The notes under the pieces are model-generated. The model saw only the letters and a list, made by a program, of their open reading frames with translations. It did no database searches and was not told the DNA's origin. From NCBI GenBank assembly GCA_049513715.1, contig JBEKVV010000005.1, positions 158,048-222,047 on the forward strand: a stretch of 64,000 bases of DNA, in the 5' to 3' direction. Below are positions 1,432 to 62,096 of this stretch, piece after piece (position 1 is the stretch's first letter; each line of letters starts with the position of its first letter). Source of the stretch: Candidatus Bathyarchaeia archaeon. Lineage in GTDB: Archaea > Thermoproteota > Bathyarchaeia > 40CM-2-53-6. The position numbers were made by a program, and so were the translations under genes.

Positions 1432-1752
1432 GATCGTTCAAGGACAGTATAGCTCAAGCATTTAGAAAGCTTTCTTGAAGCGGTGAAATTTCAGGCACGG
1501 CCTGTGCGCAAGACCATTCCGTTCTTAGTGCCGCAATCAAAGTGATAATTGGACCGGGAAGTGAATATCGCCCGCGATTCGCCACTCAATCCTGTACCTG
1601 TACAGTCAGGAACGATAACTTTGATTTAGCCCCAATTCAGCCATTTTAGGGGTTATGAACCACTAGGTGGAATAGTGGAGCTTGTTCCACCCTGCTTTAA
1701 GTATAAAGTACCCCAAGCTGTCTGTTGAAAGCGAAAGGGTGGTGAATTGAAG

Positions 1753-1836
1753 ATGGCGAAGAAACGCAAGGTCAAGATGCGAGTTAACGCAGACGCTCCA
1801 AGATCCGAGAAGGGCAGCAGCGAATACGTAGCATAA
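1753..1836 (+). CDS. 27-aa basic peptide MAKKRKVKMRVNADAPRSEKGSSEYVA (not in ORF track)
   Basis: GGTGA ribosome-binding site upstream, TTTAAGTATAAA TATA-like box near 1697; copy at 53062 differs mostly at synonymous sites. Confidence 0.75.
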   Translation: MAKKRKVKMRVNADAPRSEKGSSEYVA

Positions 1837-1865
1837 GCCCAACGAGGCTAATGCTGCTTGGACGA

Positions 1866-1881
1866 GGTTCCTTCGGGAACC
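1866..1881 (+). terminator. Hairpin GGTTCC-TTCG-GGAACC followed by a pyrimidine/T-rich tract
   Basis: Perfect 6-bp stem with UUCG loop downstream of the peptide ORF; a hairpin (GGACGG...CCGTCC) sits at the same place in copy 2. Confidence 0.5.
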
Positions 1882-1985
1882 TTCCCGATTTACCCTTTTT
1901 CCGGTAAACCCATGAGTTTCTAGCGTGCAGGTTTCATGTTGCCTGCAACTAAGTTGAGGCGTTTAAGTTCAGAGACGTGGGATTT

Positions 1986-8940: not shown

Positions 8941-8980
8941 GGTTCAAATTGCGTTGCCCGCACCAGCTGACCCACACACA
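8941..8980 (+). repeat. R2 site (T-loop form)
   Basis: GGTTCAAATTGCGTTGCC-CGCACCA-GCTGACCCACACACA; last 22 bp identical to 10000-10021. Confidence 0.8.
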
Positions 8981-8995
8981 GCCAAGATCGTTTCG

Positions 8996-9889
8996 CTAGC
9001 TGGTTCCTTTCTCAAATCCTCTTGCTATTGAATCTACAAGTTCTTCTGCGATGGAACCGTCTGGGTCTAGTTCGGGGTTGAAAATAGCGATGTCCATCCC
9101 TACTGCTCTTTTGCTGCCAAGAGCACAGGTCAGAAGATTCGACAGGTCACGGAAGCTCAGTCCGCCGGGTGTGCGATAGTCCACAGCAGGCATTATGGCG
9201 TCATCCAGTACATCCACATCCAAGTGGATCCAGAATCCGTCAATGCCTGTCTCGATTAGCTTGTCAATAGCTTCTGACGATTTGTTCGTAATTCCACTTT
9301 TCCGAATATCTTCCCATTCAACAGTGAGGACGCCTGTGGTCTTGACGTCTTGGCTACCGTTACGTTGTTGTTCTTCAACATCACGATAACCAAATGCGAC
9401 AGTATGCTCATCCCTAACGAGTGGTTTGAGTCCATCGATGTTCGTAAGAATCTCTGGTCCTCTGCCGGTTACAATTGCAAGGTCCATGTCTGCCACTTCG
9501 CCAGTTGGCGAAGCTGATGGTTGGTAGAAATCAGCGTGTCCGTCGATAAAGAAGAGTCCATAGTTGCCAAGTTGCCGCAGTGCAAGCATACAACCAATCA
9601 AGATACTGCAATCGCCCCCCAAAACTAGGGGAAAGAAACCGTCCGTTATCTCCTGTCGTATTTTATTCGATAGGGAAATGGAAAATTCACGTATCCCTTT
9701 CGAGTTAAGTACGTTCGTTTCACTGTCTCTTTGGTAGCTGTATGAAGAGATGGGCACTACTCTTCCATGATACTCCGCGCCGACCCTCTGGATTAATCCT
9801 TTAGCCTTCAACGCTTCAGGCAATCTCTCGACCCCCTGAGGTTTCAGGCCTAGGATAGAGGGACCATCAACGACGGCTATGGGCTTCAT
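8996..9889 (-). CDS. Arginase family protein
   Basis: LGGDCS, FIDGHADF and HLDVDVLD ureohydrolase motifs. Confidence 0.88.
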   Translation of the reverse strand: MKPIAVVDGPSILGLKPQGVERLPEALKAKGLIQRVGAEYHGRVVPISSYSYQRDSETNVLNSKGIREFSISLSNKIRQEITDGFFPLVLGGDCSILIGCMLALRQLGNYGLFFIDGHADFYQPSASPTGEVADMDLAIVTGRGPEILTNIDGLKPLVRDEHTVAFGYRDVEEQQRNGSQDVKTTGVLTVEWEDIRKSGITNKSSEAIDKLIETGIDGFWIHLDVDVLDDAIMPAVDYRTPGGLSFRDLSNLLTCALGSKRAVGMDIAIFNPELDPDGSIAEELVDSIARGFEKGTS

Positions 9890-27583: not shown

Positions 27584-28678
27584 ATGATGAGCTTTGCAGA
27601 ATTTGACAAACAAACCTATGAACAAAGGTGGGAAAAGGTACAAAGAAGGCTAAGGGAGACTGGGAACGAAGCTTTCTTAATTAACCAACCTGGGAATGTC
27701 AAGTACCTTTCGTGTGCTCACATCCCAAGATTCCTGCCTGTCAGCAGCCTCATAATTCCGAAGACCGGTGACATCGTCGCTCTTGCTTATCCTCTAGAGA
27801 AACCACGTGTAAGATCACTCTCAACTATACACGAGTACCTTCTCCTTCCGAATCGCGTGCCTAGTGAGTCTCTTGTGAGAGCTGGAATATGCAGAGTACT
27901 TAGGAAACTGAGAGTCCGAAGATTGCTGAGCGATACACCCGAGCATCTTCCGGGACTTGCCTTGAAACTCGACGACTTCATCTTCAAGTTGAGGGAACAG
28001 AAGAATGATGAAGAGATTCAATGTATCGCTAAGGCTTGCGAGATCGTTGTCGGCGTAATTTCCTACGCCGAACGTGAACTGTTGAAGCCTGGTTATACTG
28101 AAGTCGAGATAGCCGCAGAAATTGACCGTGAAGCAAGAAGGTCTGGGGCTCAGATGATGACCTTTGATACTATGGTTGCTTCTGGAGAAAACTCTGCCCA
28201 CCCACATCACTTTGTTTCAGATAGACGTGTGAAGGATCATGATTGGGTAGTTTTGGACTGTGGGGCATTCTATCGAGGTTACTGTTCTGACGTAACTAGA
28301 ACATATCAAGTAGGAGGGCACAGCGCTGAGTTCGAGAACATTCACAATATCGTTACAGAAGCGCAACGAAAGGCAATAGAGCTGTCACGGGCAGGTGTAA
28401 AACTGAGTGTCATCGACAGCGCTGCACGTAACGTAATAAAGGAATCCGGCTACTATGGTAATTTCACAACTGTCACAGGACACGGATTAGGCGTTACGAT
28501 GGGAGGGAGCGGGGGTGAGCGGCCCACTATAGCCCCCGGCGCTGCGGGCAGGGCTAAGAACGGCAACGTTTTCACTGTCGAGCCGGGGATTTATCTCGAG
28601 GGGAGGGGAGGCGTGCGAATCGAAGACGATGTGGTCTCCTTTGAAGACGCTCGCGTACTTTCACGATCGGAATTGTGA
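27584..28678 (+). CDS. Xaa-Pro aminopeptidase/prolidase (M24B)
   Basis: HPHH, LDCG....GYCSD.TRT, GHGLG, TVEPGIY...GGVRIEDD. Confidence 0.88.
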   Translation: MMSFAEFDKQTYEQRWEKVQRRLRETGNEAFLINQPGNVKYLSCAHIPRFLPVSSLIIPKTGDIVALAYPLEKPRVRSLSTIHEYLLLPNRVPSESLVRAGICRVLRKLRVRRLLSDTPEHLPGLALKLDDFIFKLREQKNDEEIQCIAKACEIVVGVISYAERELLKPGYTEVEIAAEIDREARRSGAQMMTFDTMVASGENSAHPHHFVSDRRVKDHDWVVLDCGAFYRGYCSDVTRTYQVGGHSAEFENIHNIVTEAQRKAIELSRAGVKLSVIDSAARNVIKESGYYGNFTTVTGHGLGVTMGGSGGERPTIAPGAAGRAKNGNVFTVEPGIYLEGRGGVRIEDDVVSFEDARVLSRSEL

Positions 28679-28688
28679 AGTGAGACAA

Positions 28689-29783
28689 TTGGTTGATCGA
28701 AATCAAGAACTAAGAGAAGATTGTTTGGCACTCCTCAAGCGACTCCTAGAGGCGAGGGGTGTCTCTGGTTATGAAAACTCGATCAGAGATCTCGCTATGA
28801 ATGAACTGAAGAATTACGTGGACAATGTCGATGTTGACAACCTTGGCAGTGTAATAGGGGTGAAAAAAGGACTGGCCGACAAGCCGGCTATCCTAATGAT
28901 AGCAGCCCACATGGATGAGATAGGACTCCTAGTGAAACATATCGACGAGAAAGGCTTCCTATATTTCGAAAAGGTAGGAAGCGTTCATGAGAGATTTCTC
29001 TTCGCACAAGCTGCAACAGTACACACTGAGAAAGGACAACTAGAGGGAATCATCTTCTCCGAACCATTTGACACCCCGGAGGAACAGGAAAGGAAAGTCC
29101 CGGACTTGAAGTCATTCTATATGGACCTTGGAGCAAAAAGTAGGGCTGAAGTCGAACACCTAGGCGTGAGAATTGGGGACCCCATTACTATCGAGAGGCC
29201 TTTCAGAACCCTAGCGGGAAAGAACACGATAGCCAGCAGAGCATTCGACGATCGCGTTGGAATGTGCGTCCTCATCGAAGCCATGAAGCAGCTTAAAAAT
29301 GAACAACTGCCGCTCTCAATCTACGTTGTCTTCACTACCCAAGAGGAAGTTGGATTACGAGGAAGCCACGTTGCAGCATCCAAAATTGCCCCCCAAATGG
29401 CGATAGCCGTGGACGTAATGCCTGCTCGAGATACACCCGGCTTCAAAGAGAAAGAGTACATAACAAGGCTGGGCAGAGGACCAACAATCACGATAATGGA
29501 ATCAATACCTGATACACCCATAGGTCTGCTAACTCATCCAAAAGTCAGGAGGATGCTAGTCGAAACGGCTGAAGCCGAGGGGATTCCTTACCAAAGGGAG
29601 GTGTCCGCCGCGGGAACTAACGATGCCGCAGCTATTCAGCTAACGGGTGAAGGTGTTCCAAGTGGCGCAATTACCATTCCAACAAGGTACACACACGCGT
29701 ATGAACTGTTGGATACAAGTGACGTTGTGGACTCTGTTCGGTTGCTCGTTGCGTCCCTCCGTCGTGCGCATAACTACCTCTAA
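28689..29783 (+). CDS. M42 family aminopeptidase (TET-like)
   Basis: GVSGYE, AAHMDEIG, AFDDRVG, QEEVGLRG, AVDV, GTNDA, PTRYTH. Confidence 0.9.
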   Translation: MVDRNQELREDCLALLKRLLEARGVSGYENSIRDLAMNELKNYVDNVDVDNLGSVIGVKKGLADKPAILMIAAHMDEIGLLVKHIDEKGFLYFEKVGSVHERFLFAQAATVHTEKGQLEGIIFSEPFDTPEEQERKVPDLKSFYMDLGAKSRAEVEHLGVRIGDPITIERPFRTLAGKNTIASRAFDDRVGMCVLIEAMKQLKNEQLPLSIYVVFTTQEEVGLRGSHVAASKIAPQMAIAVDVMPARDTPGFKEKEYITRLGRGPTITIMESIPDTPIGLLTHPKVRRMLVETAEAEGIPYQREVSAAGTNDAAAIQLTGEGVPSGAITIPTRYTHAYELLDTSDVVDSVRLLVASLRRAHNYL

Positions 29784-40187: not shown

Positions 40188-42092
40188 ATGATTACTGACG
40201 CACCAAAGGTGTCTTTTCCCAAAGAATTCCACACCAACAAAACAAAACTTCTCCTTTTGTCCGAGGAGGAAGCAGCTCACGATGCCGGACCATACGACCT
40301 TACTGAAAGCTACGCACTGCATGCAATATACCTGCCCTGCAACGTCACTGCTCTTTCCAAACAAGCCAGAAGTCTGGACGTTCCTGATGAGGGGGAGAAC
40401 AACGGCAAACAACTAGATATGCCGTTTCTACTCTACGTCCACGGTACGGACAGAGGGTTGGTGCTGATAGATTCTGGTATGGCAGATATTGGAGAGTTCA
40501 GATTCAAGTTTCGGTCTCTCTGTCCATATCGGTACGGCCTCGGTCCATCGACAGTGAACCAGTTTGAGAGAGGGAGCACGATATCACCCTCCGAAGTCTT
40601 CGGACATGTTCTGCAGTACATCCGTTCACGTGTAGACTTCGATGATGAAGTTACTTACCGAATTCTAGCTATCTGGAGTATCGGAACACATTTCCATCAA
40701 GCGTTCATGACGTACCCATTTCTGAAGTTTGAAGGCCCTCCAAGGTGTGGCAAGACTACAGCGAACTACACTGCAGGATCAATCAGCTTCCATCCAATCT
40801 TTACACCCGATCTATCGGATGCTTCTTTCTACCGTCTCCGTGAAGGACTCTCGGCCACCGTAATCATGGATGAACGTGATTTCAGTAAAAGGGAAACAAG
40901 TAGATTCGATGAATTCTTGAATAATTCATTCACTCGGGGCGGGTGTGTTGTCCGTAGTGATAAGGACAGTAATGGCAACATAGTGCCCACTCTGTTTCGA
41001 GTCTTTGGTCCATTCTCGTTTTCTGGTGTACAACAACTGCCCTACATGACTGAGACACGGACACTCATCATCAATATGCGAAGGACATTGCTGGCTCAAT
41101 ATTCAGGAACTACACCACTACTGGATTGTGATGAGGTAGCACAACTTCGGGACCAACTCTACCTCTTGCGACTACAGGTTGGACAACAAGTTGCGAAAAT
41201 CTATCGGGAGCTAAAACCTGAATCATTCGGGCTTGACACGAGAATCTGGGACATAGCTCGACCTCTAATAACCGTTGCTCGGATGGTTACTCCTGAATCA
41301 ATCAGCGATATTGTAACCTTCGTCAAGGCCCAAGGCCGAGAGAGAGAAGATGATGCAACAGACAGGGAAGAGATTCAATGTATCGCTAAGGCTTGCGAGA
41401 TCGTTGTCGGCGTAATTTCCTACGCCGAACGTGAACTGTTGAAGCCTGGTTATACTGAAGTCGAACACCTAGGCGTGAGAATTGGGGACCCCATTACTAT
41501 CGAGAGGCCTTTCAGAACCCTAGCGGGAAAGAACACGATAGCCAGCAGAGCATTCGACGATCGCGTTGGAATGTGCGTCCTCATCGAAGCCATGAAGCAG
41601 CTTAAAAATGAACAACTGCCGCTCTCAATCTACGTTGTCTTCACTACCCAAGAGGAAGTTGGATTACGAGGAAGCCACGTTGCAGCATCCAAAATTGCCC
41701 CACAAATGGCGATAGCCGTGGACGTAACCGTAGCTCGGGATACACCGGGCTTCAAAGAGAAAGAATACGTAACAAGGCTGGGCAGAGGACCAACAATCAC
41801 GATAATGGACGCAATACCTGGGACATCTACGGGTCTGCTAATTCACCCGAAAGTAAGGAGGATGCTAGTGGAAACTGCTGAGGCCGAAGGAATTCCTTAC
41901 CAAAGGGAAGTGTTCGTCGGAGGCGCTAACGATGCCGCAGCTGTTCAGCTAACGGGTGATGGTGTTCCAAGTGGCGCAATTACCATTCCAACAAGGTACG
42001 TACACGCGTATGAACTGCTCGACATAGGTGACCTTGTGAACTCTGTTCGGTTGCTCGTCGCGTCCCTACGTCGTGCGCATGACTATATCTAA
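40188..42092 (+). other. Chimeric ORF: mobile-element P-loop (DUF3631/primase-helicase-associated-like) N-part + 98 bp of the M24 gene + C-terminal part of an M42 peptidase
   Basis: GPPRCGKT and IMDE in the N-part; 41367-41464 identical to 28010-28107; 41455-42092 collinear with 29146-29783. Confidence 0.8.
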
Positions 42093-52558: not shown

Positions 52559-52775
52559 GGAATCACGCCTACATGGAAACATGGAATACGTGGTCATACG
52601 TATTCTGTCACTATCAATAGGACCGTTTGGTAACAACCCAAGCAAACGTGGAAAAGCCTTCGAAAACGGCTCAAAAATGAGGAGAGCAGGATCAAAATCG
52701 GGCTATCAAACCCATGATATGGTGGGGTCGGTGGGATATCAGCCACGAATTTCGATACAGGGTGTGGAGCTGAAA

Positions 52776-52820
52776 GCGCCGGGGGTGGGATTTTGACCCC
52801 ACTTTACCGGTACTTATAGG
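52776..52820 (+). repeat. R1 site 11 (tRNA-Ser-like 3'-end left arm)
   Basis: GCGCCGGGGG-TGGG-ATTTTGA-CCCC-ACTTTACCGGTACTTATAGG; a further tRNA-end-like remnant at ~52719-52747. Confidence 0.88.
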
Positions 52821-52922
52821 CCATTAAGATTCGTGAAGCGAATTACTGGCTTATTGTCTACTGAGAGAGAAACTTCTTCTAAGTCTTACTATGCACTCCT
52901 GTACTTGGTTTGGAGCGTTGGC

Positions 52923-53284
52923 TTTGGTTCGGTCCTAATTCAGCCACTTTTTGGGTGCTGTGAGCCACTGGGTGGAATAGTGGAACTTGCGCCACGCTAC
53001 CTTAAGTATAACTTGGGCCCTTGTAAGGTTAGGAAAGATATCCGTAGAGGTGAAATGAAAAATGGCAACAAAACGCAAGGTCAAGATGCGAGTTAACGCA
53101 GACGCTCCAAGATCCGAAAAGGGTTCTAGTGAATACGTAGCATAAGCCCATCGTGGCTTGATGATTGGACGGGTTTTTTTCGGAACCGTCCCGACGACCC
53201 TTTTTCCGGTAAACTCACAATTTTCAAGCGTGCGTGCGGGTCTAATGTTGCAGGCAACTATGTTGAGACGTCTAAGTTCAGAGA
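52923..53284 (+). repeat. Micro-cassette copy 2
   Basis: Homologous to 1620-1976; lies between R1 sites 11 and 12. Confidence 0.9.
53062..53145 (+). CDS. 27-aa basic peptide MATKRKVKMRVNADAPRSEKGSSEYVA (not in ORF track)
   Basis: GAGGTGA ribosome-binding site, CTTAAGTATAA TATA-like box; 26/27 aa identical to 1753-1836. Confidence 0.75.
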   Translation: MATKRKVKMRVNADAPRSEKGSSEYVA

Positions 53285-53327
53285 TGATTCAGGGGATTTC
53301 AACCCCAATTTACCGGTACATATAGGC
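53277..53327 (+). repeat. R1 site 12
   Basis: TTCAGAGATGATTCA-GGGG-ATTTCAA-CCCC-AATTTACCGGTACATATAGGC. Confidence 0.92.
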
Positions 53328-56383: not shown

Positions 56384-56527
56384 GTGCGAGCATCAGAATT
56401 TGAACTTGTTCAATTTCGTGTGTGTGTGGGTCTGATGGTGCGGGCACCAGAAATTGAACTGTCAGTCCCGCCGTAATTTTGTGTGTGTGCGCGCACAAGC
56501 ATACCCACACACAGGTCTGGTGGTGCG
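56384..56527. repeat. Cluster of R2 sites
   Basis: GTGCGAGCATCAGAATTTGAAC; GTGTGTGTGTGGGTCTGATGGTGCGGGCACCAGAAATTGAAC; GTGTGTGTGCGCGCACAAGCATACCCACACACA; GGTCTGGTGGTGCG. Confidence 0.78.
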
Positions 56528-59743: not shown

Positions 59744-60541
59744 ATGCCAAGAAAACGGGTGGAAATGAAAGGGAGAAAGAAGGATCCCAGTCTTGATGCC
59801 GTTATCGTTTGGTTGCTGCATAAGAACGCCCCGTTGCGGTATGATTGTCTGGAGAAGGGTGTGGCTGAGAAAGCCCGGCTAATGGACCAAATGAACAGGC
59901 CGTCATTCAAGAAGAAAATAAAGTACGACTATCTCCGAATGCTGCTAGATGAGAAAATTGTTCGCAAGCTGATCCATGATCATCAAGACTACTACGCACT
60001 GTTTGACTACGCCCCTAAAGACGCAGAGGTTGTCTGGATCATCGAGGAATTCCTTCGAAAACATGGAAGCTGGCCCAGCATTGAACAGATAGGCGGAAAG
60101 ATGGGTATCACTCCAAAAGAGGCAGAGCGGATTGCCTACAAACTTGCACCGCTGACAGGTTGGAGCACGGCTGCGCCTGACGACACCGATTACCAAGACT
60201 TCGTAGGTCGCTTGGAATTAGCGGCTTGGATAAGGATTGGTTGTAGAGAGACGAAATTCGTCAGGGAACATTGGACGCCTAATGACATCAAATGCGCTGA
60301 AAGTCTTCTATCTCGTTATCCGGATCTCCTGCCGATCATAAACGCCTATGAAGGCGAGAGCGAAAAGATATTCCACTACACCTTTAGATGGCCAGACTCA
60401 CCGATTCAAACAAACCTCGATGCGATGCGTGTTCACAAGGCCAATCGGAGCGACTTCAGAGGATCTACCGGACTAAGAATTCAGAAACGAGACAAAACTG
60501 CCCGCTCGTCAACGCCGGAGGCAGGCGATATCGTTACTTAG
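59744..60541 (+). CDS. Hypothetical protein, possible HTH domains
   Basis: 265 aa; WPSIEQIGGKMGITPKEA HTH-like segment; converges on the integrase. Confidence 0.55.
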   Translation: MPRKRVEMKGRKKDPSLDAVIVWLLHKNAPLRYDCLEKGVAEKARLMDQMNRPSFKKKIKYDYLRMLLDEKIVRKLIHDHQDYYALFDYAPKDAEVVWIIEEFLRKHGSWPSIEQIGGKMGITPKEAERIAYKLAPLTGWSTAAPDDTDYQDFVGRLELAAWIRIGCRETKFVREHWTPNDIKCAESLLSRYPDLLPIINAYEGESEKIFHYTFRWPDSPIQTNLDAMRVHKANRSDFRGSTGLRIQKRDKTARSSTPEAGDIVT

Positions 60542-61497
60542 ACTCCAAGTTGCGGTATGAAGGCCAAGTAAGCACGCCTCAGTTCCTGCCTATCGACGCG
60601 GTCGTAAATGTCGATCGCTTCTCGCCTCCGATCACCTCTCAGAATTTTGATAAATTCACGGTCCATTCCCGCACGTCGTAGATGCGTAGTGAAAAAGTGT
60701 CGAAAGCAATGTGGTGTGAGATGGTCTTCAGGTCTCGTCGATTCCGGATTGTGCAGTCCAACGGCCGTCGCGTATTTGACTGTCAGTTGGTATATGCCAT
60801 GGCGCTTCAGTCTGCCGCCTCGCTCACCCACAAATAGCGCAGGTGTTTCTGGGTGAAGATTCTCCCTTTGCGTCAGCCAACGTTTCAGTAAACGTGCTGC
60901 TTCATCGTCAAAAAAAACTGTTCGACCACTCCGTTTCTTGAATTGCTTTCGCTGCAGTGTCATCGACTGCTCAGTCCAATCGATATCGGTAATGTTCAAT
61001 GAAATCAGTTCCCCCCGCCTCAGGCCAGTCTTCGCAAGCAGCGTCAATATGGCCTTGTCACGGCTATCAACAATTGAGTTGATCAGCATGCTCATCTGTT
61101 CCACTGAAATTAGCTTGCGCGGTGATTCAACGTCACCTTCCATCTCTTTCTTGTATGGGGTCAAGTAGCGTTTCCGCACTTCCGGGACAGGATTCTTCCC
61201 AACATAATCTTCGAAAGCCAAAAACCTATAGAAGCTAGAGATGCCGGACACTTCGTTTTCAATAGTCTTCTGATCAGTCCCATTAGACCTCCTCACCCTA
61301 ATGTAATCTTGCAGGACGTGTTTGTCAACATCAACAGGTCGAACATTCCCCTGCTCAATGAACTTCAAGAATTGCTGGGTAATGGATTTGTAGCGTCTGA
61401 TAGTCTCATTGGTGAGTCCCCTAATTCGACAGTCCTCCACGAACAAGTAAAGAAGCTTCTCTGGGCTGGGAGCCTGAACGATGATTTGTTGGCTCAT
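60538..61497 (-). CDS. Tyrosine recombinase/integrase (Xer-like architecture)
   Basis: N-terminal SAM-like domain (RGLT.ETI.RY; SFYRFL...KNP), TGLRRGEL, FKKRS, PHCFRHFFTT, LRGD...AIDIY. Confidence 0.95.
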   Translation of the reverse strand: MSQQIIVQAPSPEKLLYLFVEDCRIRGLTNETIRRYKSITQQFLKFIEQGNVRPVDVDKHVLQDYIRVRRSNGTDQKTIENEVSGISSFYRFLAFEDYVGKNPVPEVRKRYLTPYKKEMEGDVESPRKLISVEQMSMLINSIVDSRDKAILTLLAKTGLRRGELISLNITDIDWTEQSMTLQRKQFKKRSGRTVFFDDEAARLLKRWLTQRENLHPETPALFVGERGGRLKRHGIYQLTVKYATAVGLHNPESTRPEDHLTPHCFRHFFTTHLRRAGMDREFIKILRGDRRREAIDIYDRVDRQELRRAYLAFIPQLGV

Positions 61498-62052: not shown

Positions 62053-62096
62053 TATGTGTACCGGTAAAATGGTGCGGGGGAGGGGATTTGAACCCC
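62053..62096. promoter_or_regulatory. tRNA-proximal att site: inverted arm + tRNA 3' end + T-arm core
   Basis: TATGTGTACCGGTAAAA (reverse complement of the R1 right arm, one mismatch over 16 bp)-TGGTGCGGGGGA-GGGG-ATTTGAA-CCCC. Confidence 0.85.

Follow-up and report, generated by a model that had tools for sequence, protein, structure and literature searches.

In the RRNPP/Rgg-SHP, ComR-ComS and Phr systems of Gram-positive bacteria, a regulator gene stands head-to-head with a short peptide gene that is preceded by an operator. Signalling of the RRNPP type combines a TPR/HTH receptor with lineage-specific peptide types and with a hydrophobic signal core or a GG/GA leader. Dispersed RiPP precursors of the prochlorosin (ProcA) type are encoded by many scattered short genes that share a constant N-terminal motif and carry diversified cores. 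In archaea, the small protein sP36 of Methanosarcina mazei is described as a 61-residue cytoplasmic protein that binds and inhibits AmtB1 and works with GlnK1 (PMC10714827).

The microprotein family reported here recalls each of these systems in part. It shares with the Gram-positive systems a head-to-head regulator-like gene, an operator-like motif, lineage-specific types and a candidate membrane uptake system nearby; unlike them, its peptides have no hydrophobic core, its genes are dispersed and multicopy, and the adjacent regulator-like protein (c1) is nearly invariant and looks ribbon-helix-helix (RHH)-like rather than TPR/HTH. No adjacent TPR-containing receptor was found at the home locus, where c1 comprises 77 residues with two helices and a hairpin. 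As in the ProcA type, the genes are short and scattered with a constant N-terminal motif, but the cores are homogenised within each lineage and no modifying enzyme is linked to them among the neighbours scanned. The family would resemble sP36, as portrayed in that source, in being an archaeal small protein that acts in a regulated manner from the cytoplasm on a membrane transporter. Unlike sP36, its members are multicopy, only 24–29 residues long and evolve in concert, and their proposed target is uncharacterised; comparison with sP36, short of an alignment, gave no sign of sequence kinship. We conclude that the family is genuine and has not been described before, and that it comes with a defined, predicted regulon and a candidate target.

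The DNA analysed (the window) is a stretch of 64 000 nucleotides from a Candidatus Bathyarchaeia archaeon (G000:C5:158048-222047, where G000 is the genome under study). A preliminary description of the window had proposed a duplicated unit of about 360 bp encoding an unannotated 27-residue peptide. The unit is present twice, with copies that are 77% identical across 369 bp (E = 4e-68), and both contain the 27-residue reading frame with the sequence claimed. The codon differences had also been given exactly: five are synonymous (codons 2, 19, 21, 22 and 23) and one is a replacement, K3T. Contigs of all four DNA runs cover the stretch around copy 2. The features of the two units are as follows.

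1660–1681, + strand: operator-like motif of copy 1 (half-palindrome CCAC-N3-GTGGAA and second GTGGA box; PWM score 17.3)
1697–1706, + strand: TATA-like box of copy 1, TTAAGTATAA
1739–1745, + strand: ribosome-binding site of copy 1, GGTGA-type
1753–1836, + strand: microprotein ORF, copy 1 (P0001), a complete 27-residue reading frame
1837–1910, + strand: GC hairpin and T-run after copy 1, terminator-like (fold z −2.23)
1968–2033, + strand: R1 repeat after copy 1 (TTCAGAGA head 1968–1975, core 1984–2033), the first R1 found on the contig
52772–52821, + strand: R1 repeat before copy 2
52965–52986, + strand: operator-like motif of copy 2 (PWM score 21.5)
53002–53011, + strand: TATA-like box of copy 2, TTAAGTATAA
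53047–53053, + strand: ribosome-binding site of copy 2, GGTGA-type
53062–53145, + strand: microprotein ORF, copy 2 (P0002), a complete 27-residue reading frame
53146–53215, + strand: 3′ region of copy 2 with weak hairpin and T-run (fold z +0.07)
53277–53327, + strand: R1 repeat after copy 2, which with the upstream R1 bounds a unit of about 500 bp
60538–61497, − strand: tyrosine integrase (PF00589, E = 2e-27), close to where the R1 array ends

The TATA-like boxes and ribosome-binding sites agree with those first described; the operator-like motif before both copies had been missed, as had the other five paralogues of this genome. The common end reported for the two copies, AAGTTCAGAGA, exists, but it is mostly the head of the R1 repeat, TTCAGAGA, and no part of the peptide unit. 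Of the two downstream hairpins that had been proposed, the first is supported in copy 1; the corresponding region of copy 2 resembles it in sequence, yet is no more structured than shuffled sequences, and the distal regions have fold z values of −0.44 (copy 1) and +0.58 (copy 2), which leaves this element weak. No Rfam family matched within the window.

The two copies belong to a set of seven paralogues in this genome. Relatives were sought in GTDB genomes and two contig collections. A profile of 16 peptides detected the family in 14 of the 23 genomes of one Bathyarchaeia genus and in none of 82 other genomes of the order, and the named records that encode relatives are from Bathyarchaeia. We collected 80 distinct loci (one to 13 per genome), and a metagenome scan added at least 59, some of them identical to this genome and perhaps the source of it. 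Complete ORFs of 24–29 residues account for 71 of the 80 loci, a count obtained with a search that favours intact ORFs; the other nine comprise three cut by contig ends, three that are intact but low-scoring and three of odd length (20, 42 and 45 residues). The consensus is M-A-K-K-R-K-V-K-M-(K/R)-(L/V) followed by a hydrophilic linker and an E-x-V-A end, with a clade-specific middle part between the fixed ends. Six of the first ten residues are Lys or Arg and the remainder is net-acidic. No hydrophobic stretch was found in the 71 peptides (the highest mean hydropathy over eight residues is 0.76), which makes Sec export unlikely; a GG/GA cleavage motif and a signal-peptide core are likewise missing from all 71, and cysteine occurs in one. 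The copy 1 peptide has no Pfam match, and neither NCBIfam nor the solved structures yielded a match to the peptide (best structural E = 0.29). A Pfam match to NuA4 occurred in only one of 16 members (E = 0.016) and was not taken as the family, and a hit in a viral contig (L208) is a chance match inside an ORF of 156 residues. Nothing on the family was found in the open-access literature searched. The peptide represents an undescribed microprotein family that one peat/soil archaeal group keeps in many near-identical copies. In genome G015, divergent small ORFs of the KRKVK type also occur in tandem, two to three per cluster (L080:9760-10085 and L082:2920-3100), and a canonical copy faces them head-to-head on the other side of a single operator.

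The purifying selection suggested for the peptide is borne out by the whole set. Within genomes, pS is 0.52 and pN is 0.12 (pN/pS 0.23, 207 pairs), and the ratio falls to 0.07 for the 103 close pairs (≥85% identical); between genomes it is 0.47. Flanking DNA in within-genome pairs is ∼55% identical, against 49% for random DNA. Insertions and deletions comprise whole codons, as reflected in the range of 24–29 residues, and the start, stop and ribosome-binding site are fixed. Among the 78 loci with enough upstream DNA, 71 have a Shine–Dalgarno motif and 68 a TATA-like box; 63 of the 71 ORFs terminate in TAA and 62 are followed by a T/pyrimidine run. The copies are stand-alone units with strong ribosome-binding sites. 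Conservation through RNA structure alone, which had been named as a finding that would undo the proposal, is not the reason: no ORF has a fold z below −2 (0/71, median +0.51). By these sequence measures the peptide ORFs are clearly real genes under coding selection.

The operator-like motif has the form TTCYAC-N3-GTRGAA followed by a second GTRGAA-like box and lies 80–125 nt before the start codon (64 sites); GTRGAA is found upstream of 72 of 78 peptide loci. A PWM trained on the 64 sites from relatives, with this genome excluded, gave 17 matches in this genome against three in shuffled DNA, and five of the best seven sites precede peptide genes. The strict palindrome gave 71 strand hits in five genomes against three control hits. 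It occurs at 4–19 sites in 15 of the 23 genus genomes and at three or fewer in each of the 82 others; this genome, in which the operator-like sites are degenerate, and G001 have none, and G007 and G020 have one each. The motif upstream of peptide genes, comprising candidate c1 sites, is confined to the genus that has c1. Further palindrome sites, among the matches listed, lie before recurring membrane-anchored and small membrane proteins and, in G002 and G017, adjoin glycosyltransferase and HAD-like genes (all labels assigned by eye). One recurrent regulon member among the matches listed is an N-terminally anchored S/T-rich protein (L159, L170, L171, L189, L190, L196, L201 and L205), and two families of small membrane proteins also follow the palindrome in several genomes among these matches. 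In this genome, operator-plus-promoter sites at G000:C1:149955 (+) and C2:84799 (−) have no peptide gene after them; the former is divergent from an ETF-like gene and has a small C2H2-like ORF after it.

The gene for c1 is head-to-head with the home peptide copy, and the motif overlaps its start, including in genomes without the peptide. It was detected in 19 of the 23 genus genomes (one hit is partial) and in none of the 82 other genomes of the order, and its identity is 83–89% between hosts with peptides that differ at half of their residues. The monomer model (pLDDT 67) predicts helices at residues 21–38 and 44–54 and a hairpin at residues 58–69, with the N-terminal strand unformed. Fold searches returned no structural match, and no Pfam or NCBIfam match exceeded the cut-off; rows for the Taf14 ET domain (E = 1.6) were at noise level and were rejected. 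The neighbour proposed by a language model is MetJ (0.92), which we treat as a lead only; with this lead and by eye, c1 looks RHH-like. It is similar to MetJ, Arc and CopG in its strand–helix–helix pattern, in the operator over its own start and in boxes spaced by 8 bp, but differs in an extra acidic C-terminal hairpin and in having no family or structural match. This hairpin is equally conserved in genomes without the peptide. The RHH-like c1 may bind the operator-like motif. Profile comparison of the peptide with c1 revealed no similarity, and the idea that the peptide is a truncated RHH strand was therefore dropped.

The home locus has the order CysRS, c1, peptide and four membrane genes led by a DUF6754 gene (PF20539, E = 3e-66). 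The module corresponds to the four-gene module of Pfam DUF6754 (PF20539), with a true DUF6754 gene and the three usual partner genes. It differs from DUF6754 modules in the other lineages examined in that a multicopy peptide gene precedes it and in lacking the GlmL-like ATPase and its partner, for which tblastn gave no hit in this genome at E ≤ 1e-3; the module may consequently be repurposed here. Judged by sequence, peptide and operon are not one transcript, because a T-run lies between them and the operon carries a promoter and a palindrome that belong to it alone. This second palindrome, GAACAC-N3-5-GTGTTC, lies between the TATA box and the operon start in seven of 12 home loci scanned (in this genome at L117, about 2720–2740; G000:C7:41221). 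DUF6754 is modelled as a Rossmann-like domain between two transmembrane helices, and the basic residues that follow the first helix hint at a cytoplasmic position of this domain. A fold search with the domain gave generic Rossmann-like hits (best Z 10.0, with many ties), and no sequence relative was found in the PDB. A complex prediction with three module subunits of G015 and a natural 32-residue paralogue from the same genome, which left out the fourth subunit, c1 and the window's own 27-residue peptide, scored 0.00 twice, with an uncertain partner fold, and speaks neither for nor against binding. A search of open-access literature gave no match for the name 'DUF6754'. At L229:3280-5262, an extracellular GH32/GH130-like propeller and an S/T-rich linker precede DUF6754 in the same protein, a layout that suggests a receptor. 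In the distant families f54/f68 (L318, L322–L324 and L326), DUF6754 operons likewise lie near CysRS, as they do at the home locus.

A close DUF6754 orthologue is present in 12 of the 23 genus genomes, in ten of which the peptide gene immediately precedes the operon. In G005 and G009, its place is taken by a small C2H2 protein of 55 residues, itself multicopy (five copies in G005, two in G009); in each of the 12 genomes, then, the gene before the close operon encodes a multicopy small protein. The C2H2 protein and the peptide share a weak KMKV.E.SP-like stretch (hhalign probability 26%, E = 7e-4, 16 columns) when a nine-row alignment picked for closeness to this genome's type is used; with all 46 rows, the probability is 5%. 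The C2H2 family (L282:1304-1471 (−), L286:2-127, L288 and L294–L299) has an internal HAKM/FAKM repeat, one unit of which is lost in one copy, and TTGCA boxes upstream; in G009 the gene is head-to-head with an RHH-like gene of 199 residues.

Operon and peptides appear to have been gained and lost together. G022 (95% complete), which is nested among carriers in the ribosomal-protein tree (96% support), is without operon and without peptide copies and keeps c1 beside CysRS. In G013 (100% complete), the operon is deleted and the home copy is fused to its remnant; the genome has one clearly intact copy, the fused remnant and one hit at E = 0.29, compared with six copies in its sister G014. G002 (99% complete) has neither operon nor peptides, and its relatives G005 and G009 have operon and small protein. 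Both are missing from G002/G003, G006/G010, G017 and G008, among which G003 (78%), G008 (76%) and G017 (73%) are incomplete. The peptide without a found operon occurs in G013 and in the incomplete G004 (75%) and G007 (67%); in G007 the home gene is cut by the end of the contig, and the operon is present at L229, a similar locus from a metagenome. These counts are to be read with 34–40% support for the deep branches of the tree and with related genomes not being independent. Since c1 is retained in the losses of G022, G013 and G002, the peptide tracks the operon and not the regulator. Neighbouring genes are easily deleted together; it is the dispersed copies alone whose loss points to a function. 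An RBS-anchored scan found no peptide upstream of the DUF6754 operons of genus g11, of families f54/f68 or of four distant copies in G011; these operons occur with the GlmL-like ATPase, peptidases and amidohydrolases. The module therefore needs no peptide in general.

Within each lineage the copies evolve in concert. In 10 of 10 genomes, the home copy is identical to a paralogue at another place in the same genome; compared with the home copies of other genomes, its median identity is 48–59%. Sequence types track clades, with G012, G015, G016 and G019 sharing one type and G004, G018 and G021 another. A weakly resolved DNA tree built from 65 ORFs (84 columns; six of the 71 were omitted by score) clusters the copies by host lineage and not by locus, and a single clade of the ten home copies is rejected (p-AU = 4e-51 on the same 65 rows and 84 columns). 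Synteny between clades is seen for the loci beside the formiminotransferase and ammonium-transporter genes, and even there the peptide is of the local sequence type. The copies may have been homogenised by gene conversion, by selection for one sequence or by both. It is rare in prokaryotes for dispersed paralogues to change their sequence type jointly, lineage by lineage, and such behaviour points to a lineage-specific partner.

R1 occurs in 47 copies in this genome, clustered and co-oriented near contig ends, and has a core resembling a tRNA 3′ end. Three of the seven peptide copies sit in R1 arrays. R1 lies on both sides of copy 2, of the copy on contig C6 and of locus L213, but only downstream of copy 1. 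Homologues are not always R1-flanked, a point raised with the original proposal: R1 lies within 1.5 kb at five of the 80 loci and is absent from the other 75. The suggested cassette mobility holds in part. The peptide–R1 unit stands next to other genes in close relatives (L213, L219, L222 and L223), which makes shuffling in this lineage likely; on the other side are the scarcity of R1 near the 80 loci and several dispersed peptide loci that are old and syntenic across species. On this distribution, R1 is a recent vehicle for extra copies and not the nature of the peptide gene. Joints in contigs of four DNA runs have sides of 21–42 letters that lie inside repeats; they are all repeat-induced and give no indication either way of an excised circle or an empty site. 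The R1 arrays (window 1968–62100; contigs C1–C11), the integrase and a tRNA-end-like stretch at 62067–62096 make up an integron-like gene-capture array, with the integrase as a candidate for shuffling R1 units. Other repeat families with tRNA-end-like cores and TG/CA runs, some inverted, lie between genes of the window (8945–9021, 22318, 54923, 56412–56513 and 57638). Two recent duplications lie inside ORFs, of 300 bp (29146–29445 and 41455–41754, 97% identical) and of 98 bp (28010–28107 and 41367–41464, 100%). Elsewhere in the genome, ARAGORN predicts a tRNA-Pyl (CUA) gene (G000:C2:419817-419913).

Gene structure, selection, linkage and co-loss are established by the sequences; how the peptide might be regulated, what it might bind and what it might do is inferred. 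Tentatively, and short of calling it probable, we favour the view that the peptide, switchable and present at high dose, acts from the cytoplasm as a ligand or substrate of the DUF6754 membrane module with its four subunits. The RHH-like c1 would bind the palindrome TTCYAC-N3-GTRGAA and thereby control itself, a set of surface and membrane genes and all peptide copies together, so that the many copies would supply dose and be switched on jointly. The unstructured peptide would dock on the module by its fixed ends, the basic KRKVKM strand and the C-terminal E-x-V-A, and would gate the module or serve as its cargo from the cytoplasm. The lineage-specific middle part would co-adapt with the partner, and for this reason all copies of a lineage would be held to one sequence.

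Nucleic-acid binding, one of the three functions first proposed, stays in contention as part of a different account, in which an abundant, unstructured basic/acidic peptide of general stress or dormancy would bind to nucleic acid or to the ribosome and be amplified for dose, the DUF6754 link being mere neighbourhood. The basic start and net-acidic remainder would suit such a peptide, as would stand-alone units in scattered housekeeping contexts and the palindromes before surface proteins and beside glycosyltransferase and HAD-like genes among the matches listed. We nevertheless regard it as unlikely, as it leaves unexplained why dispersed copies are lost with the operon, why another multicopy small protein replaces the peptide at that place, and why lineage-specific types exist when ribosome and DNA are conserved targets. 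A lineage-specific signal (pherotype) that exits and re-enters through the DUF6754 module, or is sensed by it, and feeds back on the c1 regulon would fit the head-to-head regulator, the operator on nearly all copies, the clade-specific middle between fixed ends, the occurrence of the adjoining module with peptidases elsewhere and the propeller fusion in one relative. It seems quite unlikely, however, because none of the 71 peptides has a signal-peptide core or GG/GA motif, c1 persists in genomes without the peptide, and a regulator that is so similar where peptides differ by half cannot read the variable part. A wholly new type of archaeal signalling circuit, with a leaderless lineage-specific peptide, concertedly evolving copies, an ATPase-less DUF6754 complex and an RHH-wired surface regulon, is an equally doubtful prospect; if true, it would mean kin-specific communication in Bathyarchaeia.

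The peptide could instead act as a feedback co-factor of c1, its basic strand pairing with the acidic C-terminal hairpin to tune DNA binding. The alternating patterns are charge-complementary by eye, a hairpin is predicted at c1 residues 58–69 and the operator is shared; against this, the hairpin is as conserved where the peptide is lacking, peptide loss follows the operon and not c1, and G005 has the sister small protein with no c1 found, and we consider this role improbable. The idea of a modified-peptide precursor, with KRKVKM(K/R)(L/V) as leader and the rest as core, draws on the fixed N-terminal motif, variable remainder and many dispersed genes. It is highly improbable, and the earlier suggestion of a precursor found no support: scanning 120 of 129 neighbour families revealed no linked LanM, YcaO, ATP-grasp, rSAM-SPASM or lasso cyclase and no recurrent modifying enzyme (a single radical SAM protein stands beside one locus), each lineage has uniform and not diversified cores, and cysteine is nearly absent. 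The toxin function proposed alongside it fares no better. A type I toxin, or a selfish mini-element that spreads through R1 recombination, would account for the three copies in arrays, the nearby integrase and the units shuffled in close relatives; but the 71 peptides are hydrophilic, without the hydrophobic membrane helix that is a trait of type I toxins, the window has no Rfam match, only five of the 80 loci have R1 nearby, other species keep old syntenic loci, and flanks diverge while the ORF is conserved, so that we give this reading very little credence. That the ORF is incidental to a conserved non-coding element is scarcely credible in view of the pN/pS of the close within-genome pairs, the whole-codon indels, the fixed start, stop and ribosome-binding site, and the median fold z above zero.

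With this analysis, an uncultured and abundant peat/soil archaeal lineage gains an unannotated microprotein family for which the evolutionary evidence is unusually strong and which comes with a predicted operator and a predicted regulator. For the widespread and unstudied DUF6754 membrane module, the peptide is the first candidate ligand or cargo; should it prove to be a signal, it would bear on whether archaea communicate by peptides.
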